Part shown: piece by piece, positions 6,181 to 57,302 of the stretch | Numbering within the stretch: the first letter of the stretch is position 1 | How the letters are laid out: every line of letters starts with the position of its first letter | Source: a virus | Virus record (IMG/VR): IMGVR_UViG_3300037264_003921 | Coordinates: 32,001 to 96,000 of that record | Reading direction: 5' to 3' (one strand) | Length of the DNA stretch: 64,000 nt | Notes under the pieces: model-generated | Told to the model about the DNA's origin: nothing | Database searches by the model: none | The model's input: the letters and a program-made list of their open reading frames with translations, nothing else | Program-made: the position numbers and the translations under genes

Positions 6181-6217
6181 ACTTTATATATCTTCAACTC
6201 GATAATAGTAGTTTAAA

Positions 6218-8056
6218 TTATTTACGACGATATCTTATTGCATGTTTTTGTGGGACTACCATCTCACCCATTGCTCTAGCGCCAAGCTGATTTGTAAATT
6301 TCGCCAACTCTTGTGAAATTGTTAATTGTTTATTGTCATTTGATGCCACTGTCACAGGCATTAACAATCCATTAGCAGCGGCATATCCCTGTAGTTTTTG
6401 GTTGACATCAGGATCATGTAATTCAGGTCTAATCTCGACAGACCTGATCGGAATCAATCCTCCATCGGTAGGCGTAGAATGATTCATACCAATAAATACC
6501 AATGCCAATGCCATCACAAGATCGTCGGTGTTACCTTTACCAGGCTCGGCACCGGTTCGACCACCTTTTAAATGAACATATATAGACAATTCTTTATACA
6601 AACGCGATGATTTCAAAATAAAACCATCTTCACCAACATTGTCAGTCAATGTTTTATTCAACATTGGCTTTGTGGTGGTACTAGTATTAAAGCCAATATC
6701 CCCATATTTGCTCTCTTTATAGTACGAATTCTTTTTTGGACGTCTATATAAGTTCTGGTACATTAAATTTTCAAATAATTCTTGACATATTGTAACACCT
6801 ATGCCTGTACGCTCAACCACCATGAATGCATTGTTATACCATCTACCAATATAGTCAGCCATCGTAGCAAATACACGTGGCAGCACCTTAATCTGTAATT
6901 CAGCTACTTGTTCCTGCTCAGTAACATCCATCACTTCTATGGTGGAATAGTCATTAGCGTCACCACTCGACGTATCAACACCAACACAATATGTGTGTGG
7001 CGTAGCACCTCTAACCGGTAATTTCCATACCCATAGTCTATTCTCGAAGTCCAATATAGCTCGTTCATTTGTTGATGGATTGACGTAGTCTACCTTACTA
7101 ACAGTCTTATGTTCATTATTATGTTGATATATTGACGACTGGGTATGCAACAATGCTTGTCTGCTCAATACAGTATTGCCAGTACCCAAGAACTCTGCTA
7201 ACACTTCTTGTCTATACTTAGATGAATCACCCCTCTGCGTAAGCTGCCTATACTGATCCTCTAGCCATTTGCTCCAATATGGCCCATATTTCTCCACATC
7301 TTCAGGTGTTTCACATTTACGTATGCCAGCTGTTGGTGCTATCAATACGTCCTTCCCAGACAATTCATCAACAAATGACAACTTCCAATCCATGTCCCAC
7401 CAATTGATTGTGATTGGTTTGAAGTCATTAAGATTAGATTCTGCATCAGTCCATGTCTGCCAATACCAGTTTCCGATGCCTTTAACTGTGCTGATGACAA
7501 TGCAGTTACCACCATGTTGCAGAGTAGATGCGCCAGCCGACCACATCTGATCCATGTCAGGTATGAATGCAGCTTCGTCAATGATGTTAAGTGATGAAGC
7601 ATGTGAACGCAAAGTGTCTTTAGACGATGTTAAACTTATAATTCGTGATCCATTGCCAAATCCTACTTCATGCTCATTGTCAATTGTACGTGGCCATAAT
7701 TCTCTCATCCAATCTGGTAAATTGTCATGGATCGTCTTAACGTTCTTACGCAAAAAATCCATCGCATCTAAATCTCGCTTAGACACTATTAAGATCGTTT
7801 TTTGATTAAAAAACATTGCATACCACAATGCAAAGCTCCCTGAAACAGTAGAGATCCCTGACTGGCGTGTCTTCTTGAAAATAGTAAATCTATGTTTAAG
7901 GAATTCAGACAGGCATCGCTGCTGATACGAAAACAACTTAAACGGTATAATCCCAAGTTTAGGATGCTGAATTTTTCCAAATGAATTTAGGAAGAAAGAT
8001 GGACTACGCTGACAGCGTTGTATTATTTTCTTTGTTGTTGCGTCTATTCTAGGCAT
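6218..8056 (-). CDS. Terminase large subunit (T4 gp17-like)
   Basis: Q-motif LFSYQ, Walker A KTRQSGIST, Walker B IIDEAAF, nuclease motifs VGVDTSSG and DDLVMALA. Adjacent to portal. Confidence 0.93.
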   Translation of the reverse strand: MPRIDATTKKIIQRCQRSPSFFLNSFGKIQHPKLGIIPFKLFSYQQRCLSEFLKHRFTIFKKTRQSGISTVSGSFALWYAMFFNQKTILIVSKRDLDAMDFLRKNVKTIHDNLPDWMRELWPRTIDNEHEVGFGNGSRIISLTSSKDTLRSHASSLNIIDEAAFIPDMDQMWSAGASTLQHGGNCIVISTVKGIGNWYWQTWTDAESNLNDFKPITINWWDMDWKLSFVDELSGKDVLIAPTAGIRKCETPEDVEKYGPYWSKWLEDQYRQLTQRGDSSKYRQEVLAEFLGTGNTVLSRQALLHTQSSIYQHNNEHKTVSKVDYVNPSTNERAILDFENRLWVWKLPVRGATPHTYCVGVDTSSGDANDYSTIEVMDVTEQEQVAELQIKVLPRVFATMADYIGRWYNNAFMVVERTGIGVTICQELFENLMYQNLYRRPKKNSYYKESKYGDIGFNTSTTTKPMLNKTLTDNVGEDGFILKSSRLYKELSIYVHLKGGRTGAEPGKGNTDDLVMALALVFIGMNHSTPTDGGLIPIRSVEIRPELHDPDVNQKLQGYAAANGLLMPVTVASNDNKQLTISQELAKFTNQLGARAMGEMVVPQKHAIRYRRK

Positions 8057-8577: not shown

Positions 8578-9400
8578 TAAAATAATCTATCGATTCTTTA
8601 GCAACAGAATTCCTTAATAGTTCTCTAACACTATACAACCAGTCGAAATTTAAATTCATTGACTTATTGTTGTACAGCAATAGGTCATTTGCACATGAAA
8701 AACGATCATCAACAATCGTTATCATTCCATTTGAAACACCATTGTCACATTTCTGCCAGCCATTCATAGACATAGCCATCAACGTATCGATTGATTCATA
8801 TAGTAGTGCTTTATCTGCAATATTCTTAAAATCTTCCTCTTTGATTGTTTTTCCATTGTTGGTAGCATAGAAAGAGAATGCTTCATCAACTTCTGGCTTC
8901 GGCTGATGTCTAGATGCACGTTTCAACTTAGCCAATACTCTCTTAGCCGGGCTAGAACGACGATATCTATCACTCCCACGCATATGTTGTTTAGAACGTG
9001 GAGTCATATGCTTCCTAATGGCACGTTCTATAGAATTGTCATGCGATAATGGAGAGATTCCCTCATCAAATTGAGACAACGTATTGGATATATTGGTACT
9101 GCCTCTAGATTCTGTATCAATTCCATACAGTCCAAGCAATGTAATCTCTTCTTCCCAAGATCCTTTCCCCTTACGAACAAGATCTACTAATAATTGTATG
9201 ATGTTGTCATAAACGTCATTGTATGATGAATCAGATATGTCAATTTCCGACACAAAACTAGGGTCGCCATTTAGCATTTCATATGCCCCATGTATCTTAA
9301 CATCATCTATAATGACGTCTATAACGCCATGAGGCAACCCTATACCTACATATGCCCTATTCTGCACCTGGATCTTAGTCGATTTCTTCTTCTTCTCCAT
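8567..9400 (-). CDS. Hypothetical protein
   Basis: 277-aa ORF coupled to neighbours, with a basic patch RYRRSSPAKRVLAKLKR. Confidence 0.6.
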   Translation of the reverse strand: MEKKKKSTKIQVQNRAYVGIGLPHGVIDVIIDDVKIHGAYEMLNGDPSFVSEIDISDSSYNDVYDNIIQLLVDLVRKGKGSWEEEITLLGLYGIDTESRGSTNISNTLSQFDEGISPLSHDNSIERAIRKHMTPRSKQHMRGSDRYRRSSPAKRVLAKLKRASRHQPKPEVDEAFSFYATNNGKTIKEEDFKNIADKALLYESIDTLMAMSMNGWQKCDNGVSNGMITIVDDRFSCANDLLLYNNKSMNLNFDWLYSVRELLRNSVAKESIDYFNGM

Positions 9401-10136
9401 CTGAGTCCTTTTTAGATCCTCTTGGAAGTTTGGCTGGCTCCTGGTTAACTGGTGAATCTGTAAATTCGAAACTCCTTAATCTCATTTGCTTCAAGAATCC
9501 AGTCACCCGCTGACGAGATAATCCGCTGAGCTTTACAAGCTTACCAATTAGACCATCATATGGTTTTTCATCTTCCTGATATAACTTTTCCAGAGACTGT
9601 ATAATAGTTAACCCACAATCATCATATTTGCTCATATTATTGGCTTCTTTGATAAATCTGTCAAAAGCTGCACTATGTGGTTTAAACCTACACGTCAGAT
9701 GCCCTTTATATGTGCCATAATTCTTCTTATCACGCATTTCACGCTTGATGTGAGCTAATATTACGGTCTTGGCCACCTGACTCCAAAAATTAAACACTTT
9801 TGTATGTCCAGGGCTTGAATCAAATTTGTAAAGTACTTTTTCAATTTGACACCATCCAACCTGTATCAAATCCCCAAAACTAGATGGATCGTGACCTGGA
9901 TATATGTTATGGAAATTATGCGTCCTGATTATTTGACGCAATAATTCCATTGCATGTGACATAATCTCATCACGTAATACAACATCTGTGCATCCACCCT
10001 TAACATATTTAGTTAGCCTGTCTTCAACAAGAGCATTGTTGAAATAATAATTCTTCTCTTTTGCTTCGGCCTCTAAATCCACCACATTAGCTTGTTCGGC
10101 TACAACTTTAGATTTGTTTATCAGTTTTTTAGCCAT
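9375..10136 (-). CDS. Late-transcription sigma factor (T4 gp55-like)
   Basis: YYFNN start and KFD...VFNFWSQVAKTVILAHIKRE parallel the gp55 pattern HYVNN...NFD...FAYFTQI...RRIxKE. Confidence 0.7.
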   Translation of the reverse strand: MAKKLINKSKVVAEQANVVDLEAEAKEKNYYFNNALVEDRLTKYVKGGCTDVVLRDEIMSHAMELLRQIIRTHNFHNIYPGHDPSSFGDLIQVGWCQIEKVLYKFDSSPGHTKVFNFWSQVAKTVILAHIKREMRDKKNYGTYKGHLTCRFKPHSAAFDRFIKEANNMSKYDDCGLTIIQSLEKLYQEDEKPYDGLIGKLVKLSGLSRQRVTGFLKQMRLRSFEFTDSPVNQEPAKLPRGSKKDSDGEEEEID

Positions 10137-10224: not shown

Positions 10225-11727
10225 TTACACCCTCGGCTTCCTAAACCTTGATGATATCAGTTTAGCCCCATCAACAACTACATCACAAAATACAACAGTG
10301 GATTTATATCCCATATCAACAACCGCTTTCAATTGGTTACGTGCATGTTTATACAAATAATGATTATTCAAGAACATAAAAGCAAACACTCGTGCCCATC
10401 CCTTATCGTTTACGCGTAAAGCGCGACCGCACTTCTGCTCATAGTCTGACCACAAATTACCACCACCACAAATTATTAAATTGTCAACTCCACCACGAAT
10501 ATCAAGGCCACGTTTTAATATCTTGCCACCTATCAGGCATTTAAGTTCACGACGCTCGAACATCTTTAAGTACTTCTGGCGAACAGTTTTTGATGTTTTG
10601 CCATATATAAAAACAGATCCTGGTATTACTTTTTCTAAAGTATGTCCAAGATCTTCGACATTGCCAGTATCAACCAAGATCAAGGTTGAATCATTTGGGA
10701 ATCCATTTATAATCTTTAATATTCGATTATGAAACTTTGGATTATCGATTATTTGTTCACGTTCAGCTATATCAAACGCCGTTTTGTCATCCTTGTGACC
10801 ATCCTCACCCATTGCAAACATGACAAATTTAATCGGTATAATCCGACCTAAAGCTTCTAAATCTCGCCTGTTTGCTTCATAAATCACAGAGCCAATATGT
10901 TCTTTTAGAATTAAATTTTCAACCGGACGTCTCTCATCAAATGGAGTAGCAGACAAGCCATATTTTCGACGTCCATTAAAATAATGTTTAAATAATGCCC
11001 TATATTGTTTGCTTACTGCTCTATCACATTCGTCAACAATTAACAAATCAGCTTTTTTCACTATCGCCTGAAATGTTTTAGCGTGTTTTAATCTTTTTGA
11101 ATATGCAGACGGATTTTTAAATTTAAATGATTCTGATGGTGAGCTTAATGATTGAATAGAACCAATAATGACACTCTGTCCATCCGGCGTTTCACCGCCA
11201 TAGAATAGCCCAACATCAAAAATGTCGCGCAATTTTAGTCGTTCCTTAATTTGCTCAATGACAATCCTCTGCTCAGCGATTACGACTGTCCGACAATTAA
11301 ACAGCTTTATGATACCAGCCGCTATTTCTGTTTTCCCAGCACCTGGTGGTAGTTTAAATAATCCAACTTCAACATCTGCCGATTTTTTAATTGCATCGAT
11401 TTGATATTGTTCAAGTGCTATATTAGAAAGCCAATTAGCATCAACTACAGTTCTATCTGGCACTGATATTTGTGGCCGCTCATCGATAACATCAAGTGGT
11501 ATATCCGCTGTTGTGCAAAACTCCTCAAGTTCTTGCAATAATGGTCTAGCAAGACGTTGTCGTTTAACGTCATATTTACGATAATATCCATCCCATGATT
11601 GCTGTGATGTGTCTATGAAATAAGCACGTGGATGTTTAACACTAAAATGATTAACAAGCTTAGGTTCTATACCAAGTGTAACTTGATCCAAGCATACCCA
11701 ATCATTATTAACGATTCTTGCTTGCAT
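10225..11727 (-). CDS. SF2 DNA helicase (UvsW-like)
   Basis: YQ motif, PPGAGKT, IVDECD, GLSATP, RGLDI, QKCGRALR. Confidence 0.88.
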   Translation of the reverse strand: MQARIVNNDWVCLDQVTLGIEPKLVNHFSVKHPRAYFIDTSQQSWDGYYRKYDVKRQRLARPLLQELEEFCTTADIPLDVIDERPQISVPDRTVVDANWLSNIALEQYQIDAIKKSADVEVGLFKLPPGAGKTEIAAGIIKLFNCRTVVIAEQRIVIEQIKERLKLRDIFDVGLFYGGETPDGQSVIIGSIQSLSSPSESFKFKNPSAYSKRLKHAKTFQAIVKKADLLIVDECDRAVSKQYRALFKHYFNGRRKYGLSATPFDERRPVENLILKEHIGSVIYEANRRDLEALGRIIPIKFVMFAMGEDGHKDDKTAFDIAEREQIIDNPKFHNRILKIINGFPNDSTLILVDTGNVEDLGHTLEKVIPGSVFIYGKTSKTVRQKYLKMFERRELKCLIGGKILKRGLDIRGGVDNLIICGGGNLWSDYEQKCGRALRVNDKGWARVFAFMFLNNHYLYKHARNQLKAVVDMGYKSTVVFCDVVVDGAKLISSRFRKPRV

Positions 11728-12419: not shown

Positions 12420-15400
12420 TTACGGAGAGCACCCACCAAGAGACGTCCCACATGAAAGACATAACTTACACGGAAATTCTTGAATCAATTCGCTCCCACA
12501 TTTACTACATCCACGTCCTTTAGTGGCAGCTATAAATGTCCTCTGCCCCAATACAGATTCATTCTGTGATTTATGTCCGTTGCCATTGTGTCCATTCTTC
12601 CCATTTTTAATCATTCCACGGCGCACTTCATGCTCTGCTGGTATTTTCTTACAATAGGTTGTGTCGCCCTCGTACTCCAGCATGGCCAATTTAACAACCA
12701 AATCAGGGACGCTAGAGCAATATGTAATATATGGATGATCAGTACGGCCAGCAGGACCTCCCTCTTCATTCAAAAAACTGTCGGCAATTTCTTTTATTGG
12801 TTGGCCATATTGAATTGCATTAGACATGGATCTGCTCATCCATCTCATAGCCAATGTAAAATCTGGATTACTTTTGCCAACTTCAATCCAAATCTCAGCT
12901 AAACTACCATCTTCATATTCACCAAATTTAATGATGATCTTATGATGCCCCTGAGTTGTATAAATTGTAACTTCATGAGCAACCAGCTCACGTTTACGAG
13001 GTGGCCTACGTCTATCACCACGAAGGTACACTCTAGCGTCTTTACACGAATCGCTCCACCAACTCATATCAGTAGGGTTGTTAAGTGGTTGGCTTTGTTT
13101 AGATCCATCGCGATAGACAGCAAACCCTTTTATTCCACCTGGGCAGTAGCGAGTAGACCCCCTACCATCAAATGCCATCAGATACAAATTGCCAATATCA
13201 TCTTCGGTAGCTTCATTAGGTTCATTAACAGTTTTGCTGATAGCCCCACTGATAAATGGAGACACTGCTGAACACATTCTAACATGAGCCTCTGGATTAA
13301 TGAACCTCTTACCATATCCACTTCTATTAGCACAATCAAATATCGACAAATGCTCAGATCGTATATGTGGTGCTCCCTCAAGTGTGCCATACCCACAAAT
13401 CCATTTATTGGCTTCAATGTATTGTTCTTGTGTAAACTTTAAGGCAGTAAAAATATTCGTAGATTTTTTATCAATGTCAATCGCCTGTAGTGTGTCGTCT
13501 GACAATTTATACGGCATTAATGCATAACGCAACTGACTTACACCACTCAGATTAGCCTCTATTTCGTCTAAATCATCTACAGTAACACCGACATCAAGCA
13601 GAGATTGACGATTAATATATGGAGCGCCATCAAATGTGTTATTACCTAATACGTATATCATTATGTCGTCAACTTGAGAATCAGAGTAACCCAAATTCCG
13701 CAAACTAGTCTCAACAGACTCATTTACAATCTTCATAGAACCGCCACCAGATAAACGTTTAAATTTCACAATACCAAAATCTGGTTCAATGGCTGTGGTA
13801 TCACAGCCAAGTACAAGCCCTATAGTACCAGACGGTTGAATGACTGTAACAAATGCATTTCTATATCCAAATTTATCACCTTGTGTTATGGCATTATCCC
13901 ATGCTGCTTCAATTGTATTGGTCAATTCATCATTTATAAAACTGTGATCGATCGACCATGGCGTAACAGTGAGATTTCTAAATGAGAATGATTTTAATGA
14001 TTTACGCACAGATGCAGCACAATGATTTCGTAGTACTTGCTGCATGCAATCTTTGTTCGCTTCATAGCGAGGAAATGTTCCTAAAGTCCTAGCCATATCA
14101 GCACTTACGCTATAACATTCCGCTGTCATCAGAGAAGTGACAGCCGCAGATAGATGACATGCCTTATCACAATCATATTTGATTCCAGCCCTCATCAACA
14201 CAGCGCCGATCCCGGAATGCCCCAAACCAGTTGTACGATATTTAACAGTACCTTCTGCTAGTTGTTTGGTTGGTAATTGAGCGGCATTTATCGATATATC
14301 AAGTACCATCAACCAATGACGGCATGCAGCAATAAAATCCTTAATTTTAAGATCGCCGTTATCGTGGAATAGAGTTTGGAGATTTAAAGTAGCTAAATTA
14401 CAAGCCGTGTCGTCTAAGAATGTATATTCTAAACACGGGTTTGAAGTTTTAATTCTTCCATCAGACTTACAAGTATTCCAATCATTTATAATATCATCAT
14501 ACTGAACACCAGGATCGCCAGATTCCCAAGCAGCTTTTTTAATATATTGCCACAATTCTCTAGCCTTCATTCGTCTGATCACTTGTCCAGTTGTCCGAGC
14601 TGTCATATCCCACATGACATCACCAACGACTGCATCTAAAAATTTCTTAGATAGGCGTATTGAATTGTTGGAGTTTTGTCCTGATACTGTTTGATAAGCT
14701 TCTCCCTCCCATCCAGCATCAAAACCGCCAATTGCTAAGGCTTGAGTCTTTTTCTCTTCGATTCCTTTCCATAAAATAAATTCTGGTGCCTCTGGATGGT
14801 CTATATCAACAACCACCATCTTGGCAGCCTTTCGTTGTGAAGATCCTGATTTTACAACACCTGCTGACCTATCAAAGATTTTCAAGAAACTCATCAGCCC
14901 AGTGGCTGGGTTGCCACTACTCAACTTTTCAAATTTTGAACGAATAGCAGAAAAATTTGAGCCAGAGCCTCCACCAGAGACGAATGCTCTTGCTTCGCTT
15001 ACTATTCTATTAAATATGCCATCTTCTTCAAATAAACTGTCACCAACAGATTGTAAAAAGCACGCATGGATACCAGGATTTTCATATGTATTACTAGTTT
15101 CATTAGCGACACAAGTCTTTGGATCAGCTTTCCAGAATCCTTTCTTTTTCCCTGCATGTCCATATGCCCAGTAGACGCCACTATTAAACCATTGCGGGGT
15201 ATTAGGGGCAGCAATTTGGTTTATCAACATGTAGACTGATTCGTCATAAAAAATCTTCGCATCAGCCTCTTCATCGAAATATCCATACCACCAACCCCAA
15301 TAAGCCCAGAATCCAGCTAGTCTATGAAAAATCTGTTTTGTACTAGTCTCAGGCCCAAATTGACATCCATCAACAGGTGTAGAGCGCTGTAGCCAATCTG

Positions 15401-44692: not shown

Positions 44693-44985
44693 CTATTCGT
44701 GTGGACCATGTGGCCGACCATATGGATCTGGCGGCACAGGTGGTACATCGCTCGCACGTATTTTAGCACGTTGGGCGAGATGTGGAGGTCCCCATACGCT
44801 ATACATCTATGTTCAATCGCCTTAGCAATTAAATTACCGTCAAGCCCGAAGATTCTCCCCACATTTTCAACTTCCTTGACTGCATCAGTCAGTGGTTTAT
44901 TGTAATCCCATTCACTACCAATTAATGCTTGTGATGATAATTGTGATGGTGTTGTTATTGATCTAGGTGGTGACTGATCTTCATT

Positions 44986-45408
44986 TCGGCAGCAGGCACA
45001 CGAGTGCGAAGATCATTTGTCCTCCTTATGGATATATTCGGTGAGAGCTTCTTCGAGTAGTCCCATTCGCTTGCTTAAGGCTGTTGCAAGCTCTACGTCC
45101 GTGGGAAAGGGAGGCGCACGGTGGATGAATGTAGCAAGCGCAGTCCCTAGTGAGTGAGTACCGTACAATGCGAGGTACTTGTCAAGCAGTGCCATGGTTC
45201 GTTTCCTCCTTTGCCGCAGCGAGCGAGGTGGCGGGCAGGTGCCACAGTACCACGTCGCGTATTGTTGCGTTCATATAGGTATGACGACGAGCAACGGAAT
45301 CTGTTTCATCGAAAATTCGGTGAGAAGTGGCAGGTGGTAGGCGTTACTGTCAGGTAACGGCGGCCGGTCGAGGAGCTGGGAGAGGGTCGTCCCTACATGA
45401 TGCGGGAG
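44986..45408. other. GC-rich foreign insert A
   Basis: Line 45181-45240 is 38/60 G+C against AT-rich flanks. Sharp junctions; contains AAGGAGG-led ORFs. Confidence 0.7.
45013..45195 (-). CDS. 60-aa protein carried on insert A
   Basis: AAAGGAGG-aaacgaacc-ATG. Stop overlaps another AAGGAGG-led ATG. Confidence 0.6.
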   Translation of the reverse strand: MALLDKYLALYGTHSLGTALATFIHRAPPFPTDVELATALSKRMGLLEEALTEYIHKEDK

Positions 45409-45457
45409 CATAATTTTAGCAAGATTTTCAATAAAATCGTCCATTTAGTTATCCTAA

Positions 45458-45994
45458 CTATTGTGGGAAACCCATAAATCCTTTTAGATTTGGCAACTGT
45501 CCATATTTAACACCATTATAGCTGATATAGAATATGTCGATCCCAGGAGATGCAGTCTCTAGTGCTACTTTCAAATCAGCAACGTCATTTTGATTTTTAG
45601 TAGTAGGCAAATCCCCCCATCCCTGTGTTCCCTGCACTGGCGTCATAACAGACGTTTTCTCAGCATCCGTTGAACCACTATGTATGATTTTCGCAGTTGG
45701 TACAACTGGTGGGCGTGTAGAATCAGAGCTAGCCACAAATCCAACAATAGTCAGACGTGCGGGTGCTTGCCCAACTTGTGGTACGAACAATACGGGTGCT
45801 GCAACATTAAATCCAGCATCGATCAAATCATCTTCAACTTTTTGTGCTTTCTTCTCTAAATCTCTATGGTACTCGGCTTTGCGGCCGAACGCTCTTGATG
45901 GAACAACTTTTGCATATGCTACGAATGGTTCATATTTAGTGCCTTGAGGCCCACTAAGAGCTGGCATTCTTGTAGATGTAGAATAAAGTGTCAT
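45458..45994 (-). CDS. Hypothetical protein, probably late/virion
   Basis: 178 aa; CAAATATA 4 nt upstream. Confidence 0.65.
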   Translation of the reverse strand: MTLYSTSTRMPALSGPQGTKYEPFVAYAKVVPSRAFGRKAEYHRDLEKKAQKVEDDLIDAGFNVAAPVLFVPQVGQAPARLTIVGFVASSDSTRPPVVPTAKIIHSGSTDAEKTSVMTPVQGTQGWGDLPTTKNQNDVADLKVALETASPGIDIFYISYNGVKYGQLPNLKGFMGFPQ

Positions 45995-46073
45995 ATATTA
46001 TATTTGATGATACTATCAAAATTATGATAGACGAAATTTCCGCCCATTCCTATATTGTGCCAGTCCGCACAAA

Positions 46074-46331
46074 TTAACACACACACGATAGCGCTGATAT
46101 CGATGACGACGAAATGGATATGGGATTTGTCCGAGCCACTTCTAAAATATGCTTATGTAGATCTTGGCTTGAACGACCTCGCCCTAATGAATCGTAACAA
46201 ACGCGACAAGCCAATTCACTCAACTGCTCATATTGAGTGCCGATCATTTGACCATCAGATGGCTTATCCATTTCTTCAGGAATTAAAACTTCGCCGCCAT
46301 CATACACCAATTTAGCAATAATATGTTCCAC
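46074..46331 (-). pseudogene. thyX: N-terminal fragment of flavin-dependent thymidylate synthase
   Basis: LSELACRVCYDS...HKHILEV matches the ThyX N-terminus. The sequence breaks just before the expected GHxSxxEH, and there is no RHR motif. Confidence 0.65.
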
Positions 46332-46396
46332 AATTGCTAAAATACATGTTTAGATATAGTTTGGGCCAGCAATTTCTGCTGGCCCATCCCATTCAG

Positions 46397-46783
46397 TTAT
46401 ACTGATCTCAACTCGTCGTGTAGATCATCAGTGAGAGACCCAACCTTCTTGAGTAAGAAGATGTCCCTGCCGATACGCTTCGGCATCGCCAAATCGGCGA
46501 TACCAACAACTGCCTGCGCAGCTGTCACTACATCACGTAATTCACGAACTATTGGTAACCCAACTCTGTTATTGTCAACAGATGTCGTTACGATGTCATC
46601 CGATGCATCACGGGTTTCCGTAACCAGATCCTCATGACCTGGAACCGACATGACTGCTCCACGCATGCCAGGGAATCCCAGCAATGGAAGAATCGCCTCA
46701 TGACGTAGATCCTGACGATACGCACGTACGGTGTATTCCACCGAAATCAGTGTGTTCGCTGGTTGACTTGCCATTAATATCAC
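46397..46783 (-). CDS. Hypothetical protein, probably highly expressed; likely start MASQP at 46774
   Basis: AGGAGGTGA RBS; 10-bp-stem hairpin at 46362-46386 downstream. Confidence 0.65.
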   Translation of the reverse strand: MILMASQPANTLISVEYTVRAYRQDLRHEAILPLLGFPGMRGAVMSVPGHEDLVTETRDASDDIVTTSVDNNRVGLPIVRELRDVVTAAQAVVGIADLAMPKRIGRDIFLLKKVGSLTDDLHDELRSV

Positions 46784-46853
46784 CTCCTAAACGGCTAAGA
46801 GCCACAATGGCTCTGTCCTACTGTAAATTTGACTAAATATTATTAAAATACCG

Positions 46854-47243
46854 TTAAGGTTTAGATGCGCGTTCTCTTATATGAACAGTTTCAATAGATT
46901 TAATATTGTGTACCGTCATACCATCACCAATTAAGGAATCACATTCTATAATAATGGCGATCTCAGGATGCTTTAAAGATTCAAACAATTTCTTAGCATC
47001 ATCAAATAACTCTATGTCAGCAATTATTTCATCATTAAATAATCTTATATCATTCACTTTATGTGTAATGATTCCATCAACTGAATTAAAAGTCATTCTA
47101 TCAAAGATGCCACCAAATACCTGCCCACCACTCAATCTACGCCTAAGATCCTCATCCTTTAATGCAGATTCAATCGTTGCTTTCGGATATAAATTACCAC
47201 GGCTTGTTGGAAAGTCTACATATATTCCAGAGCCAATTATCAT
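46854..47243 (-). CDS. Degenerate prohead-protease (gp21)-like protein
   Basis: SRGNLYPKATIE...VFG...ITHKV....DEIIADIELFD parallels gp21 NGRIYP..GELDH..VSH..G..EILD. No SSRG catalytic motif. Confidence 0.45.
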   Translation of the reverse strand: MIIGSGIYVDFPTSRGNLYPKATIESALKDEDLRRRLSGGQVFGGIFDRMTFNSVDGIITHKVNDIRLFNDEIIADIELFDDAKKLFESLKHPEIAIIIECDSLIGDGMTVHNIKSIETVHIRERASKP

Positions 47244-47277
47244 CTAATCTCTCGTATTATATTCGTCTATGGCAATA

Positions 47278-48426
47278 TTAGTCAACAAATATATAGTCAT
47301 TATGATTTGGACCTGTCCCAATCATTACAACTGGTATACCTGCGGTCTCTTCCATCTTATCAATAAATTTTCTAACCTTAATTGGCAGTTTATTAAACTG
47401 CGTTCTGCCGCCATGCATCTGATACGCAGACCAGTCAATATATTGTGGAAAATTTAATATCTGTTTAGTAGCCCCGCAGAATGAAGCGGATTCTTTAAGC
47501 AATTGCCATGAGAATGTAAACACACGTCTAATCTTCTTAGTAACTGTGGTACGTTCTTTTTCTGCCAACACTGATATCTCTGATTCAGGCATACCAGCTT
47601 CCCTGCCAATCTGATCCCATGTTAATTCATGTTGATCAGACATACAATCACCAGAGTATCCAGTTTGTTTCCCATCTCTATAATTATTACCAACACGAAT
47701 AGGGAATGTTCTGACGTTTAGATACACGTCACCAACCATATTTGGTAATATGCCAAGATCAGAATATGCTTGTTGTGGTGTGCAGTCTCTGAACGTACAA
47801 TATGGATAGTGTGTGCCATGATTGACAGATAAAGCAAATCCTTGTGATACTTCATGCATAATTGAGTGCCCATCGCTTAACGTTCTGCGCACAGTATCAA
47901 CAAATTGCATAGGCGTCAAAGTACTCATAACGTCGCTAGCTAACGTTGTCTCCGGTCTGCGCATTGATTTCTCTGAAAATGCAGCTCCTGAGCCAGACAT
48001 TGTTGAAGAAACTCTTTCTGTTGATTGAGATCCATTAGGAGATTCAATATCAATATGCCGCTGGCTCATAATAACAGCGCGTTGATGGATTTTGACAAGT
48101 TTATCATTTATTTTATAGCCAGTTTGTTCAAGTTCCTTATTAAATTGTTCAATCATAAATCCAGATCCTGGACCAACAAATAAATTCAAATTGCTAAATC
48201 TGTCTGCTTTAGTCTTATGAAGAATCGCTGAAGTTGGAACTACTTTTGCAACAAATTTGACATTACCATCTAATCCATCAATGATGGCAGTATGTCCAGC
48301 ATTTGCATAATTACATGTTGAAACATTATTAATATTATATATATCAACAAGCCGCGTTGATGCAGCTCCTTTTGCAGAGCTACCCCAGGCTGAGTCAACA
48401 ATACAATTAAGTTTACCCTTTTGCAT
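47278..48426 (-). CDS. purZ: Adenylosuccinate-synthetase-family enzyme with PurZ signatures
   Basis: WGSSAKG (Ser where PurA has catalytic Asp), NAGHT, QGFALS..YPYCT.RD, RTFPIRVG, DQHELTW, TTVTKKIRRVFTFS, LNFPQY, GTGP. Confidence 0.78.
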   Translation of the reverse strand: MQKGKLNCIVDSAWGSSAKGAASTRLVDIYNINNVSTCNYANAGHTAIIDGLDGNVKFVAKVVPTSAILHKTKADRFSNLNLFVGPGSGFMIEQFNKELEQTGYKINDKLVKIHQRAVIMSQRHIDIESPNGSQSTERVSSTMSGSGAAFSEKSMRRPETTLASDVMSTLTPMQFVDTVRRTLSDGHSIMHEVSQGFALSVNHGTHYPYCTFRDCTPQQAYSDLGILPNMVGDVYLNVRTFPIRVGNNYRDGKQTGYSGDCMSDQHELTWDQIGREAGMPESEISVLAEKERTTVTKKIRRVFTFSWQLLKESASFCGATKQILNFPQYIDWSAYQMHGGRTQFNKLPIKVRKFIDKMEETAGIPVVMIGTGPNHNDYIFVD

Positions 48427-48512
48427 AATCCCTCCTGCCTACTGTATGAAATGCTTTACCATATTTAGCGAGTGTTTCATTAATATCTACATTCACTCAT
48501 TGTGTACAGTAA

Positions 48513-48857
48513 TTATAACTTGGATGCATGATCAATTGACATACGGAATGGCCAACACCTCCAACAGCGTGTGCATCGAACGGCCTTCCTGCCGTCGCGG
48601 GTAAACCGGTGTGAACAGGGGCTTGATCCGTCCGGGATGATATAGCCCTTGGCGTCCAAATGCACTGGCCATAACTCTTCGACCCATTCCTTCGCCTTAC
48701 AACCCATCCATTGGCATTCACGACGATAGCCGCCGCCGACAAATTCCTCGATGGCATACCACTGACTCCATGCATGGTGAATAGTGCCATTGGTGCATCG
48801 CTTAAGACGCTTTTTCTTGTTCACCTTACGCATGCCCATGAGATATTCTCTTATCAC
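48513..48857 (-). CDS. Cys/His-rich protein lying mostly on GC-rich insert C (about 48541-48840)
   Basis: Two C..H..RxCxx(x)C-like units. Line 48541-48600 is 37/60 G+C. Confidence 0.5.
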   Translation of the reverse strand: MIREYLMGMRKVNKKKRLKRCTNGTIHHAWSQWYAIEEFVGGGYRRECQWMGCKAKEWVEELWPVHLDAKGYIIPDGSSPCSHRFTRDGRKAVRCTRCWRCWPFRMSIDHASKL

Positions 48858-48860
48858 AAT

Positions 48861-51472: not shown

Positions 51473-52444
51473 CTATTCTATAGTTTTTAATTCATTCAAT
51501 ATTATATCTACAGCTGTCTTCTGATCAAGTTTGCCAAAATACTCAGCAAACTTATATTTATTATATGATGAACAAAAAAATATCTTCTGTCGTTCTTCAG
51601 GTGTCAGTACATTTACAGCTGACATATAACTTTCTGCCTCACTATCAAATCGTTTTAGACGTACATCATTAGCTACATCTGGGTTTTGTCCATAAAAATG
51701 TAACTTACCACTCACAGAACACATATCGACACCAAAGATGTAAATTTTATCATATTGCATCCAAACAGCTGTTTGAATATTTGCATATGTTGATGATCTA
51801 CCAACATGATACCCTCTTACTAGATCTCTAGAAAACCCCTTTCCAGATAAACTCTTTATCAAAACTTGGTTCTTATGTGGTGCTCGCACAGATGACGCAT
51901 TTAATGTAGTACCATTATATTTTTCCCATATTTGTTTATTCCTTGTATATTGACTCTGATCGCAAAATGCCCAATAGCGTGATGGCCATATTCTGCTATC
52001 TGGTCTATTAATACACATTATGTCTATTTTCTTGTTATCTTTCAACTTTTCCAATGGCGCTTCAAGAACAGATGGTCCACATGCTACAATCACTAATATT
52101 CTACCACGCCCAATGCCACGCAATCCTTCAATCGCTGCTCTAAATTGCGCTACTCTATTTGAATTGAGCCTATTTACACTACTGCTTATTAGACGTGGTT
52201 TATGTTCTCTTATTGGGAAGTTTACTCTAACATCTCTCTTTTGCTTAGGCTGCTGTTTGATTATTGGTTTCGCAGCTTTAACCAACACTACCTGTGGCAC
52301 TCTTGGTTGTATAATTTTTTGTTCAATATTTTGAGTCCTATTCGGTTTATTAACTTTAATGTGGACTCTCTGAATTGGTAGTTTATTCAATGATCTATAA
52401 TTATGTGCCACAAAATATCTTTGGCATAAATTACAACCAACCAA
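51473..52444 (-). CDS. DUF115/Maf-like (GT42-related) glycosyltransferase-fold protein
   Basis: IVACGPSV, IMCIN, YWAFCD, SSTY..IQTAVWMQYDKIYIFGVDM, HFYG. Confidence 0.7.
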   Translation of the reverse strand: MVGCNLCQRYFVAHNYRSLNKLPIQRVHIKVNKPNRTQNIEQKIIQPRVPQVVLVKAAKPIIKQQPKQKRDVRVNFPIREHKPRLISSSVNRLNSNRVAQFRAAIEGLRGIGRGRILVIVACGPSVLEAPLEKLKDNKKIDIMCINRPDSRIWPSRYWAFCDQSQYTRNKQIWEKYNGTTLNASSVRAPHKNQVLIKSLSGKGFSRDLVRGYHVGRSSTYANIQTAVWMQYDKIYIFGVDMCSVSGKLHFYGQNPDVANDVRLKRFDSEAESYMSAVNVLTPEERQKIFFCSSYNKYKFAEYFGKLDQKTAVDIILNELKTIE

Positions 52445-52479
52445 TCACCGTAAGTTGTATAAAATAATAGTATTAATAA

Positions 52480-52869
52480 TTAATTTTCATTAACCTCTAC
52501 AGTATGGTCGCCAACAAGCCTCTTCTTAAGATTAGCTAAAACAACTTTTCTACGTGATTCTTTATTCATTTTAGAATATAAATGTCTAAATACCGTAGTA
52601 GTCAAAAGATTAAAAACTGGGGCACGACCAGGAGTAAATTTCAACCTCCCATCACTTATTTTGGCAATTGTAAGAACAAATGCCTCATGGGCAAACTCGT
52701 GGTGTTCATCCTCATCGTGTGGATGAAAATGTATAGCAACACCATAGCATATTTTATATATGCCATCAAGCAAATGTTTCCAAGATTCTTCATTATGGTT
52801 ATCAAGCCATTTTGTCCAATGCTCTTCAAGCAATTTAGAGTCTACATAGTACTTTTTAATACTTGCCAT
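52480..52869 (-). CDS. Short gp55-like sigma (region 2 only)
   Basis: KYYVDS start; KFTPGRAPVFNLLTTTVFRHLYSKMNKE parallels the 9375-10136 protein. Confidence 0.55.
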   Translation of the reverse strand: MASIKKYYVDSKLLEEHWTKWLDNHNEESWKHLLDGIYKICYGVAIHFHPHDEDEHHEFAHEAFVLTIAKISDGRLKFTPGRAPVFNLLTTTVFRHLYSKMNKESRRKVVLANLKKRLVGDHTVEVNEN

Positions 52870-52926
52870 ATCGTTGCTCCTGTGATATTGTAGGCATCTA
52901 ACTCAAATACATTTATTGGAGGAAAC

Positions 52927-54054
52927 ATGGGCGGACAACTTGCACGGTTATTCTTACGTGGATCATTGATGAGTGATACAGCAAAATTGCTAACAAAGAG
53001 TGAAATCTCAATGGTTGAATCCTTAATGAAGGAAGCATGGGACGATCCAGCCCTCCAAAGCCAAAAAATGGAGTTCTGCCTCGCATTAGGTAGAACCATA
53101 GGTAATGAATATAAAGACATAGAAGCTGGCAAAGCCGATGCATTAATCACATTTTGGAAAGCAGCATTACTCGTGCTGTTTCATGAATCGAAACAATGCA
53201 AGAATCAATCATGCAAAAAACATCACATCACCACACACATAAAAATAGATAAATGCATTGACTGTGGTAGCGATCTTATAATTAAATGGTCTCCAAAACC
53301 TCAAATTGCAGAAGATCCAATAAAGCGGAAAAAGTTTTTCCAAGCCGTTATGTTTAACTATCTTCGTCAAATTTTTAGGGAGAATAAACCACCTTCTATG
53401 AAAAACATACAAACAGAAGACGGAGCAGCAACTGATGTTGCAACAAAAGTTATTACATCAATTATTGACAAACTTAAAAATGTCCAATACACAACAGAAA
53501 ACACTGACGATGACCACCACATAATTCATTGTGAAACATCACTAATACCACTTAAAACAATAAAACAAATCGCTGATATAAAATCCGAATTTGAGCAACA
53601 TGGAGTACAAATAACTGTTGACTGGGCTACAATCGATATTGTGTCGGCTCTTGAGGTTCCACCTATAATAAGTTATGCGATTATTAATAAAGTATATACT
53701 AAATTTACAAGCCTAGATAATAGTGCATCAAACGACTCAGACTATAATTTCAAAGACATATACGAGCATAAAGCAATTTCAATAGCCGATGAAAAAACAC
53801 AACAGGACGAGTCAGACCTCAATGAGTCATTAAGGGTAGTTCGTAGTAGATTGTCAGATGCAGCACAAAAATTATTTGATGTTATCGTAGACACACCAGA
53901 TGATTATATCAATAAGTTCAAAACAAGCAAATTACATAAATCGCATTTAGCAGCATATTTTGGAGTAGACCAGAAAGAAATAGACTCCCTAAAAGAAAGT
54001 ATCAAACTTCATTGTCTTGCTGTAGATATTGGAACAAATGACGATCATGTATGA
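52927..54054 (+). CDS. Sigma-factor-like protein with Zn-ribbon insertion
   Basis: Region-2-like FFQAVMFNYLRQIFRE, region-3-like TSLD, region-4-like RLSDAAQKLF..HLAAYFGVDQKEI; CKNQSC..CIDC insert. Confidence 0.5.
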   Translation: MGGQLARLFLRGSLMSDTAKLLTKSEISMVESLMKEAWDDPALQSQKMEFCLALGRTIGNEYKDIEAGKADALITFWKAALLVLFHESKQCKNQSCKKHHITTHIKIDKCIDCGSDLIIKWSPKPQIAEDPIKRKKFFQAVMFNYLRQIFRENKPPSMKNIQTEDGAATDVATKVITSIIDKLKNVQYTTENTDDDHHIIHCETSLIPLKTIKQIADIKSEFEQHGVQITVDWATIDIVSALEVPPIISYAIINKVYTKFTSLDNSASNDSDYNFKDIYEHKAISIADEKTQQDESDLNESLRVVRSRLSDAAQKLFDVIVDTPDDYINKFKTSKLHKSHLAAYFGVDQKEIDSLKESIKLHCLAVDIGTNDDHV

Positions 54055-54104
54055 TATAAACAATCAGAAAGACGAGCATAAGCTATGCAGGTAACAGATG
54101 TTTA

Positions 54105-54143
54105 CATTTCACGCTTGATGTGAGCTAATATTACGGTCTTGGC
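54105..54143 (+). repeat. Exact 39-bp direct copy of 9735-9773 (inside the gp55-like sigma gene)
   Basis: catttcacgcttgatgtgagctaatattacggtcttggc occurs identically at both places, 44,370 bp apart. Confidence 0.95.
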
Positions 54144-54182
54144 ATATGAAGCAGTCGGTGATACGATGAAGAAGGTGAAGCG

Positions 54183-54287
54183 ATGGGAAATATGAAGCGG
54201 TGCGAGTGTGGCCGATGGATGCGGATTGTGCATGAGCTGGGCCAATCCTATTGGAAGTGCATCTGCGGAAAAGTGGAGTCGCTTTAG
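54183..54287 (+). CDS. 34-aa Zn-ribbon microprotein
   Basis: AAGGTGAA RBS; MGNMKRCECGRWMRIVHELGQSYWKCICGKVESL. Confidence 0.55.
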   Translation: MGNMKRCECGRWMRIVHELGQSYWKCICGKVESL

Positions 54288-54367
54288 GTTTGAAAGGTGA
54301 ACAGGATGAACGACACAGCGAAGCACACGGGTATAAGGTGAGGCCTCTTTGATTCGTCGGAGGAAAG

Positions 54368-54475
54368 ATGGAAGATAACCTGAAAAAGTGTTGCCCGGAG
54401 TGCGGGGGATTCATGATGTTCAACGTGAACTGGTATTGGATTTGCCCCATCGACGGGACGCGACTACAGGCTTGA
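54368..54475 (+). CDS. 35-aa CPxCG Zn-finger microprotein
   Basis: GGAGG RBS; MEDNLKKCCPECGGFMMFNVNWYWICPIDGTRLQA. Confidence 0.6.
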   Translation: MEDNLKKCCPECGGFMMFNVNWYWICPIDGTRLQA

Positions 54476-54619
54476 TTCGAAAGGTGAACAGGATGGACGA
54501 CGAAAAGCGCGATGCGATGCAATGGAAGGCGCAGATGCGCCCGATCACCTGTGCCGGAATCACGACGGATCTGGACGGGGCGAATGTCAGCCCTACGTGG
54601 AAAGACAACGCCTTAAGAG

Positions 54620-55147
54620 TTAATAATTAACCTTACTACGTTCATAATATCCACCAGAGATACTAGGCCCAATTCTTCCACTACGTGGAGAAATTGGCAT
54701 GGACACCTGTGACGTTGGTTGGATTACACCGCTCTTATTTGCAGCCATCACTTTCGTAACAAATTCTATGATCTCTGATGGCGATTTTTGCATTGTTGCA
54801 ACACTAGACGGTGTTGGACCATATATAGATCTTTGGAATTCAGACATATTATTATGCGACGAATCACCAAGTGACATTCTGTGTGTTCCAAGAACGAACA
54901 TATTCCATCCAACAACAACCTGACCAGTAGCAGGATTTAAATCCTTAACATATGGCACAATTTCAACTTTACTAACTAATTCTGGGACACGAACAGCAAC
55001 ATCCTGCAACATTGGTGCATATATTGGCCGATTAAAATTGTCAAATCCTTTATCTTCAACAAAATACCTAGTTAAAGACCTCTTTATTAGTTCTGTATTT
55101 AATGCACGCCTAATATTTTCTACAAGATCTCTATCATTTGACAGCAT
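54620..55147 (-). CDS. Hypothetical protein
   Basis: 175 aa, follows the gp46-like gene. Confidence 0.65.
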   Translation of the reverse strand: MLSNDRDLVENIRRALNTELIKRSLTRYFVEDKGFDNFNRPIYAPMLQDVAVRVPELVSKVEIVPYVKDLNPATGQVVVGWNMFVLGTHRMSLGDSSHNNMSEFQRSIYGPTPSSVATMQKSPSEIIEFVTKVMAANKSGVIQPTSQVSMPISPRSGRIGPSISGGYYERSKVNY

Positions 55148-55160
55148 ATAATATATTTTA

Positions 55161-57302
55161 TTAACTTACTATTCGTGAAAAGCCATCGATATCTTGCAAT
55201 ACTGTTATCTGATTTGAGAATTGATCCGCCATTTCAGCTTTATGACTTATAACCAATATAGTATCGGGCTTATCAGGACGATCACCAGAGAAATCATTAT
55301 GAATGACATCAACAAATGCCCTAACTCCATGCTGATCAAGACTACCATCTATTTCATCTAAAACCATCACATTACACTGCTGGCCATACATCGAGATATA
55401 TAAATCATATATTGCAAACATTATGGCAAGATCTATCCGTTTTTGCTGCCCACCGGAATGAAAGTCATAATCCCATTTTGATGTCTCTATAGATAATGTT
55501 GATGTAAATCTCAACTGTAAGTCGCATTCAAAAGCATTAAGATAATATTCTATTCGCTGATTGAGATATCCGACTAATTCCGATATTACAAACATTTTAA
55601 TTTTATTTCTATCATGATAACTACGTCTAATATATTCATATTGTTTTATTAAATTGTCGAATTTTGTAATATTTAATAATGTATCACTTAATTTATTTTG
55701 TGAATCATTCAAATCACATAGAAATGTTGACTTAATGTCTAAATATGGATTCTGCCTACTACTTTCTTCGGCAATACGCTCATCTAGGTCTGTAATTGAT
55801 TTGTGAATTTCAGAATATCGTAAGTGCACCCGCTCGGCATTCATTAATCCAATTTCAACATCATCTAGTTTTATCTCTTCACTTAGCTCATGTACTAAAT
55901 CTAAAATCCGTGAATTAACATCAATAAGTTTAGTCTTATAATCTAATTTTTGTGATATTTTATCATCTATGTCGGCAATTTCTAATTTAATGCTATTCTT
56001 ATCATTAAGTGTTCTAATCGCTTCATCGACAGTCATTGATGGCCTATTAATGATTATATCCTTTATCATAGCCATAATAGATGCAATTGCTTTGTTGATT
56101 TTTTCCAACTTAGAACACAATTCTGGCAGTTTGTCAACATATGGTTTACATAAGTCAGTTGTGTGTTCATTTGTAATAAGCTGTTGGCACGATGGGCATT
56201 TTGTCCCATTCTTGTTATTCCATTCAAATATCGTTTCATTTGTTGATGTAATGTCTTGTTTGATCTTACGTTGTTCTAACACAAAAATAGACAATTTGCT
56301 GTTCAGGTCATTGTAGAGATTAACTAATCTGTCAGCATTTTTATGTGATTCAACTAATTCATTAACGTCTACAACTTTGATTGTATCGAATTTAGTCTTA
56401 TAATTTACTAAAGATCTCTTTAGTCTTTCTATATCTATATTAAGTTGTGTTAATGCGGTGTCAGCCTTTAATAACTTGATCTTATTGTCTGATAATTTTG
56501 TTATTTTTTGTTTATATATTAAATAGTTAGATTTTATCAGTTCTAAATCTGGCAACACAATCGTCAATGCTTCATCATTGAGCTTCTTTATCTGTGCTTT
56601 AAAATGTATGGTCTTATTAGATCTTTCTTGTTCAAATCCTTCAATCTTTTGCTCAGCATGTGATGCTTGATCTGTGAGTCTTTTAATGTCATTTTTAAAT
56701 ATATCAGCAACAGCACACAATTTCTGCTGCTCTATTTCTATAGCTGTCCGTTTTTCTTTAGCTATATCACCCCACACGTTAAGTCTATTAAGACCAAGCA
56801 TCCTTTCAAGGGCTGATTTTCTTTTGACATCGCTCATATCTAAAAACGATTGTGTACGTTGCCCAAAGAACATACTTGATGTAAATATTTCGTAATCAAG
56901 ATTGAATAATTTATTCAATAATTGTTGTGCATTTTTATTCGTCGATAATGTTATATCCTTACCATCTTTATTAATTAATAGATCATCATGTCCGTTTAGA
57001 TTCCTGGTGCGGGTTATTGTCCATCCATCAGTTGTTGTTATTCGAACATAACATTCTTTTTTAGTCGTAAAATTTATTACTTTATCGCCTGGTGATGATT
57101 TTCTCGGCGTTCTTCCAAAGAGACACCATATTATAGCAATGGTTATCCCTGATTTACCTGTACCATTAGACTCATCAGGCCGACCATCTTTACTTCCAAT
57201 AATCAATACAGGCCCTAAAGATAATAAATCTAATGATGACTCATAGTCGCCATAACTTAAAAAGTTAGACCATTCTAGTTTATTTATGCGTAATATGGCC
57301 AT
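55161..57302 (-). CDS. Rad50/SbcC-like ATPase (T4 gp46-like)
   Basis: NFLSYG, SNGTGKS, coiled coil with CPSC hook, SGGQ, VLDEIDGSLD, VISH. Confidence 0.93.
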   Translation of the reverse strand: MAILRINKLEWSNFLSYGDYESSLDLLSLGPVLIIGSKDGRPDESNGTGKSGITIAIIWCLFGRTPRKSSPGDKVINFTTKKECYVRITTTDGWTITRTRNLNGHDDLLINKDGKDITLSTNKNAQQLLNKLFNLDYEIFTSSMFFGQRTQSFLDMSDVKRKSALERMLGLNRLNVWGDIAKEKRTAIEIEQQKLCAVADIFKNDIKRLTDQASHAEQKIEGFEQERSNKTIHFKAQIKKLNDEALTIVLPDLELIKSNYLIYKQKITKLSDNKIKLLKADTALTQLNIDIERLKRSLVNYKTKFDTIKVVDVNELVESHKNADRLVNLYNDLNSKLSIFVLEQRKIKQDITSTNETIFEWNNKNGTKCPSCQQLITNEHTTDLCKPYVDKLPELCSKLEKINKAIASIMAMIKDIIINRPSMTVDEAIRTLNDKNSIKLEIADIDDKISQKLDYKTKLIDVNSRILDLVHELSEEIKLDDVEIGLMNAERVHLRYSEIHKSITDLDERIAEESSRQNPYLDIKSTFLCDLNDSQNKLSDTLLNITKFDNLIKQYEYIRRSYHDRNKIKMFVISELVGYLNQRIEYYLNAFECDLQLRFTSTLSIETSKWDYDFHSGGQQKRIDLAIMFAIYDLYISMYGQQCNVMVLDEIDGSLDQHGVRAFVDVIHNDFSGDRPDKPDTILVISHKAEMADQFSNQITVLQDIDGFSRIVS

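Follow-up and report, generated by a model that had tools for sequence, protein, structure and literature searches.

An ectopic perfect copy of a sigma-like gene segment whose source adjoins a predicted intein homing site in a T4-like phage contig

Described systems closest to the locus

One-sided homing in phage T4 leads to illegitimate break repair with extensive degradation and has been suggested as a route to ectopic sites, in the account given in PMC2988022; the products of one-sided intron homing are there attributed to Parker, Belisle and Belfort (1999), and the illegitimate products are summarised as having junctions at microhomologies. To go by that account, the locus described here resembles the T4 system in several respects: the phage is of the T4 type, a conserved gene contains a homing-endonuclease target, exon- or extein-adjacent DNA is newly joined to heterologous DNA, ends are trimmed by nucleases before they are joined, and a route to ectopic sites is proposed. 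The T4 observations differ in that they come from laboratory crosses with group I introns and GIY-YIG or HNH enzymes, and in their microhomology junctions, whereas here a LAGLIDADG intein is found only in relatives, the ectopic sequence is a 40-nt extein fragment without an intein, and the joints have no microhomology. The event itself was observed in the T4 crosses, while here we infer it.

Templated or 'filler' insertions at repaired breaks are best described for eukaryotic end joining. They resemble the present case in being short exact copies from the same genome between two unrelated joints, but the enzymology would here be of the T4 type rather than of the Ku or Pol-theta type, and literature searches on these themes listed no description of a filler insertion in a phage. 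In the hyperplastic regions of T4-type phages, promoter-stem-loop cassettes shuffle genes. There, as here, foreign small genes are inserted in variable intergenic slots; the cassettes are however regulatory repeats present in many copies, whereas here one internal piece of a coding sequence has been copied once.

Antisense repressors of phages include the CI RNA of P4. Another is the c4 RNA of P1 and P7 (Citron and Schuster 1990, cited in PMC12197685). Repressors of the c4 type have in common with the present locus a repeated genome segment through which one phage RNA becomes complementary to a different mRNA from that phage. They are conserved, processed and structured RNAs with short complements in loops, in part as described in PMC12197685, whereas the segment studied here has neither structure nor conservation and consists of 39 nt of raw coding sequence.

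The window is the whole stretch of 64,000 nt that was analysed, bases 32001-96000 of a 125,263-nt IMG/VR virus contig that is by estimate ~34% complete. The phage is T4-like by its portal gene (PF07230, E 4.5e-62), its large terminase and its gp46- and gp47-like genes. An earlier account made from the letters of the window, the sequence-only reading, had pointed out a segment shared between two distant places and had offered two explanations for it, an antisense or guide element timing a sigma cascade, or self-derived filler captured together with a GC-rich insert.

The repeat pair and the slot that holds the copy

The segments at 9735-9773 and 54105-54143 are identical letter for letter and on the same strand, in a direct comparison as well as in the repeat search, where they make up family D3, so the exact match claimed by the sequence-only reading is confirmed. 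The bases that abut the two copies differ (G at 9734 and A at 54104; C at 9774 and A at 54144), and no similarity was found in the 60-nt flanks on either side of both copies. The pair scores E 6e-14 in a self-BLAST of the whole 125,263-nt contig, which is far beyond chance; the sole longer self-match, of 69 nt at 93%, belongs to a local repeat that lies outside the window, and the remaining matches are at most 27 nt. The 39-nt pair is the only long dispersed repeat in the contig. The sequence-only reading had also suggested a search for other self-copies of 25-45 bp beside GC-rich inserts, and none is present in the 125 kb. Further GC-rich islands are found at 44700-48860 of the window among AT-rich genes, with up to 57% GC in segments of 200 nt and with short, mostly minus-strand ORFs; no short self-copy borders these islands.

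The ectopic copy (54105-54143, plus strand), which was recovered by the repeat search, by self-BLAST and in the run contigs, lies where it had been placed earlier. The plus-strand 375-aa ORF ends at 54054 and the copy begins at 54105, 50 nt past the stop, and it forms the left border of the GC-rich insert, the GC content being 34% at 54055-54104 and 52.5% at 54144-54619, with the change at the right end of the copy. Together these parts form a mosaic of 565 nt (54055-54619) with three pieces at 34%, 43.6% and 52.5% GC, of which the copy is the middle one. Piece 1 (54055-54104), delimited by base composition, is 50 nt long, and the rest of the contig contains no match to it of at least 13 nt. 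Piece 3 (54144-54619, plus strand) is 476 nt long and appears foreign by base composition and ORFs. It encodes two paralogous zinc-ribbon mini-ORFs of 34-35 aa (54183-54287 and 54368-54475), each followed by a 17-nt RBS-plus-ATG motif found in the repeat search (54292-54308 and 54479-54495), and an orphan ORF of 45 aa (54493-54630), all on the plus strand. As the contig represents ~34% of the genome, pieces 1 and 3 could be copies of parts that lie beyond it.

The right wall of the slot is a conserved minus-strand gene of 175 aa (54620-55147), recognised by its ORF and homologues and convergent with the 375-aa gene. Its homologues adjoin a gp46-like gene at two loci, L012 in the relative G001 and L057 in the relative G002, the relatives compared having about 60-70% protein identity. 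In G002 the corresponding 174-aa and convergent 370-aa genes overlap by 4 nt, which makes an empty site, and in G001 the same slot is filled by genes of 204 aa and 278 aa. Since the slot is empty in one relative, filled otherwise in the second and occupied by a three-piece insertion of 565 nt here, the copy is one component of a mosaic that entered an insertion hot spot between convergent conserved genes.

No donor was found for the GC-rich piece. Two sequence-pattern scans of genome contigs gave 0 matches, and the piece resembles neither what fills the slot in G001 nor, beyond the copy itself, the inteins of two relatives described below (L010 and L011). A nucleotide search of 52400-55400 against GenBank phages gave no match. 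The 17-nt motif was tried as a pointer to the donor and was discarded as chance, the motif being present at 29 viral loci with none of the matches extending past 21 nt. A group I or II intron, or a remnant of one, was rejected as no ribozyme covariance model matched the piece, and a search of both strands of 53900-54750 against Rfam gave nothing at E 5 or better except one irrelevant lncRNA row; tRNA scans of the region gave nothing. A CRISPR spacer or mini-array was dismissed as no repeat is common to the flanks of the copy, and a role as recombination substrate was dismissed as deletion between the direct repeats would cost 44 kb of essential genes. The two mini-ORFs are paralogues inside a duplicated module of roughly 187 nt. 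The second of them, ORF2, matches only repeat units in four long, unrelated-looking proteins, and a 1306-aa protein of a representative library has up to 21 repeat units that match it (E 8e-28), the Pfam matches of this protein looking spurious. For ORF3 no relatives except itself were found. Some intergenic stretches upstream of the window (G000:C1 ~2300-2430 and 14450-14700) are tRNA-like, with T-arm-like motifs of the GGTTCGAATCC type on the minus strand.

Support for the junctions was sought among Logan k=31 contigs, where two runs contain the stretch, the DNA run X1, which is the probable source run and hence not independent of the contig, and the RNA-library run X2 from another study. 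In X1 a 22-kb contig terminates at 54103, the repeat forms a 39-nt unitig with a depth of 28.7, a 14-kb contig (depth 14.7) extends from 54114 across the GC-rich part to past 55000, and a 17-kb contig (depth 14.9) exits the repeat into the sigma flank. Both junctions are present at about 15x, with the repeat node at about twice that depth. A contig of X2 is identical over 54122-54292 and contains the right junction, which is thus held independently of X1.

The copy does not stem from an error of assembly. Metagenome assemblers may mis-join contigs that share k-mers, and the k=31 contigs are unable to phase a 39-nt repeat; the flanks are paired by way of the original assembly, the intactness of the sigma ORF and the synteny of the relatives. 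A contig mis-joined at the shared 39-mer is nevertheless hardly credible, since the junction k-mers and the repeat node have the depths given above, the right junction also occurs in a run from another study, and a crossed pairing would disrupt both the conserved sigma ORF and the adjacency of the 375-aa and 175-aa genes that is common to two relatives. The chimera that the sequence-only reading had wished to see checked is therefore not supported by the re-assembly of X1, by X2 or by the gene order of the relatives.

The left junction in X1 is a bubble, where one unitig is exact over 54074-54134 (depth 9) and the other arm covers 54074-54133 with one differing letter (depth 7.2). A further unitig of 31 nt, which is a single k-mer with a depth of 21, has a first letter that mismatches the A of the window at 54104. 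Its depth is close to 14.9 + 7.2, and for a single k-mer to stand apart, two paths must lead into it. Most simply, ~44% of the X1 population would carry G at 54104, as at 9734, the window representing the A allele. With this second allele the identity would extend to 9734 and the copy would be 40 nt; if the G allele is real, the original copy had a length of 40 nt or more and its edge is beginning to vary. A meaningful framing of the copy as exactly 13 codons was considered and has lost its weight, because with a 40-nt allele the framing of the 39-mer is incidental. The polymorphic base beside the copy (depths 9 and 7.2) fits a drifting scar. In X2, five letters at the left end of the contig do not align to 54117-54121, which may be a variant or a tip error, and most of the 3' part of the 375-aa gene, 53602-54121 and the 175-aa gene are without cover, which at a depth of 2-4 is uninformative.

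The sigma-like genes and the predicted homing site

The source of the copy is a minus-strand gene of 253 aa (9375-10136), identified by its ORF, weak sigma-70 profile matches and AF2/Foldseek comparison. The source segment (9735-9773, minus strand) consists of 13 codons for aa 122-134 (AKTVILAHIKREM) and falls, by alignment and invariant columns, in the most conserved block of the protein. Its description as part of a minus-strand sigma-like protein in the sequence-only reading holds, the sigma-likeness coming from weak profiles and fold. The match to the sigma-70 region-2 profile covers aa 54-137 with E 0.0057, at a score of 16 bits against a curated cut-off of 42.9. The AF2 model, built on six sequences, has a pLDDT of 64.5, and sigma factors dominate among the Foldseek PDB matches listed for it, with a best E of 0.04 and a TM of about 0.3. 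The protein is thus described here as sigma-like, and not as the late, gp55-like sigma of the sequence-only reading. Relatives are found at nine viral loci with 62-72% identity. Neither the 253-aa protein nor the 375-aa protein has a tblastn match among GenBank phages, and phmmer and profile searches of PDB sequences gave nothing meaningful.

The conserved gene upstream of the copy (52927-54054, plus strand) was characterised by its ORF, AF2 model and structural alignment. It encodes the 375-aa protein, which has 31 homologues, on contigs of up to 384 kb, that are called hypothetical where a source name is given. Its AF2 model (pLDDT 77.9) aligns in VIA-align with sigma region 4 over aa 292-370 (2h27_D; Z 7.6, rmsd 3.2, 67 aligned) and with the SigE N-terminal domain, sigma region 2, over aa 24-155 (8b3z_A; Z 5.8), both Z values being middling by the tool's own note. 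The match to RpoD_Cterm has an E of 0.0085. A four-Cys zinc ribbon (C91, C96, C110 and C113, all invariant) and a ferredoxin-like (alpha/beta) domain lie between the sigma-2-like and sigma-4-like ends, and the protein is probably sigma-like, with the zinc ribbon and the alpha/beta domain as insertions.

A degenerate pattern for the source peptide was found once each in seven viral and four metagenome contigs, always within the sigma homologue. The sigma DNA of G001 gave only the self-match when compared with its own contig, and that of G002 gave the self-match and two matches of 14-19 nt with E 0.76, which are due to chance. No second sigma copy was found in any examined relative (11 contigs scanned, and own-gene searches in G001 and G002), and the proposed co-variation of the copy with its target thus finds no counterpart in these relatives. 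The sigma genes of the relatives match the segment at 28-32 of the 39 nt and differ at 7-11, mostly at synonymous positions. Because the relatives share only 28-32 of the 39 nt and are without a second copy, the copy is recent, lineage-specific and derived from the sigma gene of its own lineage. The argument of the sequence-only reading that zero mismatches imply a recent origin is supported by the 7-11 positions at which the relatives differ.

Of the nine viral loci that contain a sigma relative, L010 and L011 have a tblastn match that is split in two blocks. The loci contain single continuous ORFs, of 637 aa and 706 aa, with an intein exactly between W118 and S119 in the numbering of the window protein. 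The intein of L010 is 387 aa (...FNMW/CVSPD...SHN/SQV) and that of L011 is 444 aa (...FNMF/CVVPD...VSN/SQI), the slashes marking the intein ends. Both have the features that define an intein, with Cys at the start, Asn at the end preceded by His or Ser, Ser at +1 and a continuous ORF. Pfam searches identify Intein_splicing (PF14890; E 1.6e-10 and 9.2e-11), which is a Hint splicing domain, and LAGLIDADG_3 (PF14528). Intein and/or LAGLIDADG Pfam domains are found in all homologues longer than 442 aa (34/34), and the C-extein alignment restarts at residue 119 in 22 of these. Other breaks among the 34 are located at approximately residue 96 in five, and one has a further break near residue 173.

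The boundary between W118 and S119 is the predicted main homing site of the sigma family. Its equivalent in the minus-strand gene of the window, placed by the split tblastn matches, the continuous ORFs and Pfam, is at 9782-9783 (9783/9782 on the plus strand), and the source segment ends at 9773, 9 nt off. The sigma allele of the window is intein-less, and no intein-bearing sigma allele was seen in run X1. The end of the fragment that is proximal to the site (9773) is also the end joined to foreign GC-rich DNA (54143/54144). The chance that a random 40-nt segment ends 9 nt or less from any of the six known intein sites in 125 kb is ~0.004, a rough post hoc estimate made with no formal test. The proximity of an intein site to the source segment is new and goes beyond the sequence-only reading.

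Explanations of the copy

The best explanation may be that illegitimate break repair left the copy behind, with cleavage by a homing endonuclease as the plausible trigger, and the probability of this explanation is estimated at roughly 0.55. A co-infecting, intein-bearing relative would supply a LAGLIDADG homing endonuclease that cuts the sigma allele, which should be cleavable because it is intein-less. The cut end would then be trimmed by a few bases. Breaks in a T4-type infection would be processed by gp46/47 and repaired by recombination-dependent replication, and an end could occasionally be joined to heterologous DNA or extended on it, by end capture or by priming on a foreign template. 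Such a product would land in the variable slot, with the sigma gene intact in the surviving lineage, and any duplex that plus-strand RNA formed with the sigma mRNA would be a by-product. It is the break, the role of the endonuclease and the order of these events that we infer. A selected function need not be assumed, and an incidental effect of the pairing with the sigma mRNA is possible.

Several observations at the locus agree with a repair scar of this origin. The junctions are novel and without extended homology in otherwise syntenic DNA, and the copied DNA adjoins a predicted endonuclease target (9 nt from W118/S119). The domains in the 34 long homologues and in L010 and L011 suggest that the endonuclease circulates in relatives, co-infection being assumed. 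No microhomology is seen at either joint, with zero shared bases at both borders, which is a departure from the scars expected of such repair. Two novel joints are required for the 40-nt fragment and four for the complete mosaic, and no single known pathway predicts exactly such an outcome. The link to the intein site was made post hoc. The same mosaic, sharp junctions and variable slot fit equally well with a templated patch that has nothing to do with inteins, where a break or a stalled fork at the slot was followed by template switching that copied 40 nt, the nearness of the intein site being a coincidence that arises as both the copy and the site favour a highly conserved block. That X1 showed no intein-bearing allele speaks for such a patch; against it are the low chance (~0.004 by the rough estimate above) of lying within 9 nt of the dominant intein site and the fact that conservation at the protein level gives a polymerase no reason to choose that DNA. 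The intein-free patch is considered a good deal less probable, though it is the most serious of the competing explanations.

A selected antisense regulator is improbable. Plus-strand RNA, coming from read-through of the 375-aa gene or forming the 5' leader of the mini-ORF cassette, would in that case pair over 39 nt with the sigma mRNA and time or damp the sigma cascade, the pairing over region-2 codons leading to duplex cleavage or a block of translation. The geometry claimed for this by the sequence-only reading is correct, as the copy is complementary to the minus-strand sigma mRNA at 39/39 nt with perfect identity; no terminator-like site is found in 52300-55300, the ORFs that follow share the strand of the copy and are provided with RBS motifs, and 54122-54442, with 22 nt of the copy, is matched without differences by contigs of the X2 RNA library. 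Phage repressors that act through short complementary segments are also known, such as the c4 RNA of P1 and P7 in the description of PMC12197685. The orientation of the copy and its overlap with an RNA-library contig count against a pure scar. However, the orientation alone had a prior of 50%, the X2 contigs are strandless and may come from DNA carry-over, and read-through from convergent minus-strand genes is equally likely. The slots of G001 and G002 are without the copy and the 11 scanned contigs gave only the match of the sigma gene itself, the region 54040-54200 folds at -30.4 kcal/mol against a mean of -30.7 for shuffled sequences (z 0.09), no Rfam family and no enriched promoter motif are found, and 39 nt is far beyond the need of a trans-acting RNA and resembles raw copied DNA. 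It is similarly improbable that a working trans-antisense module, one that silences the target, was built in one step by the copying of a piece of the target gene, with a homing-endonuclease break providing the raw material.

A function at the DNA or protein level has very little to recommend it. The copy could act as a decoy for the extended recognition region of the intein endonuclease, being from the C-extein side near the homing site, but it is without the insertion or cleavage point itself. Alternatively, a minus-strand ORF could mimic the sigma region-2 helix, and in a 74-aa ORF at 54102-54326 the 13 sigma residues do form the very C-terminus, directly before the stop. This ORF is however antisense to plus-strand ORFs that are preceded by an RBS, its composition is junk-like and its stop codon is lost in the putative G allele; neither function is accompanied by conservation. 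Between the two explanations of the sequence-only reading, self-derived filler is favoured over the antisense regulator. It is the better supported by the mosaic in a variable slot, the sharp borders, the absence from relatives and the polymorphic edge, and it plausibly gains a specific cause in the neighbouring intein homing site.

Promoter and terminator predictions around the copy were not above the expectation from shuffled sequences. The T4 late motif has 12 occurrences, none of them intergenic, and k-mer enrichment gave no clean motif upstream of genes. An 11-mer (AATACTATTAT, at most 1 mismatch) is located upstream of three minus-strand genes including the portal gene (1788-1798, 6202-6212 and 52464-52474, minus strand); it is not enriched (5 matches against 4.2 expected) and may belong to a promoter. 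At 54139-54167 (plus strand) the junction between the copy and the GC-rich piece is spanned by a sigma-70-like -35/-10 pair with extended TG, and sites of this kind are no more frequent in the region than chance predicts.

If the scar explanation is true, the locus is a natural footprint of T4 laboratory genetics, and homing-endonuclease breaks do more than spread introns and inteins, in that they also supply short pieces of conserved genes to illegitimate joints, through which foreign DNA enters the variable slots in the genomes of large phages. Two known sources of plasticity, selfish endonucleases and hyperplastic intergenic slots, would thereby be linked. Further cases could be searched for as short exact self-copies whose source adjoins an intein or intron site. 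A regulatory role would be more striking; what speaks for it at present is the geometry.

The uncultured T4-like jumbo lineage possesses a sigma-like gene family that is heavily targeted by inteins. The family (P0037-P0070) is an intein hot spot with at least two and possibly three sites, at about residues 96, 118 and 173, and several of its proteins of ~1100-1200 aa contain two inteins. The portal gene (1852-6180, minus strand, 1442 aa), which is adjoined by the T4-type large terminase gene (6218-8056), is interrupted by two intein/homing-endonuclease modules with Intein_splicing in two stretches, LAGLIDADG_3, Hom_end and Hint, which indicates that inteins are active in this lineage. A helicase homologue at 23-1447 (plus strand) of L010 has an apparent mini-intein within the DExD motif, where the translation reads ...VDE/CVHEM...LLVHN/CDKAS..., as compared with VDECDRAV in the helicase of the window (10225-11727).
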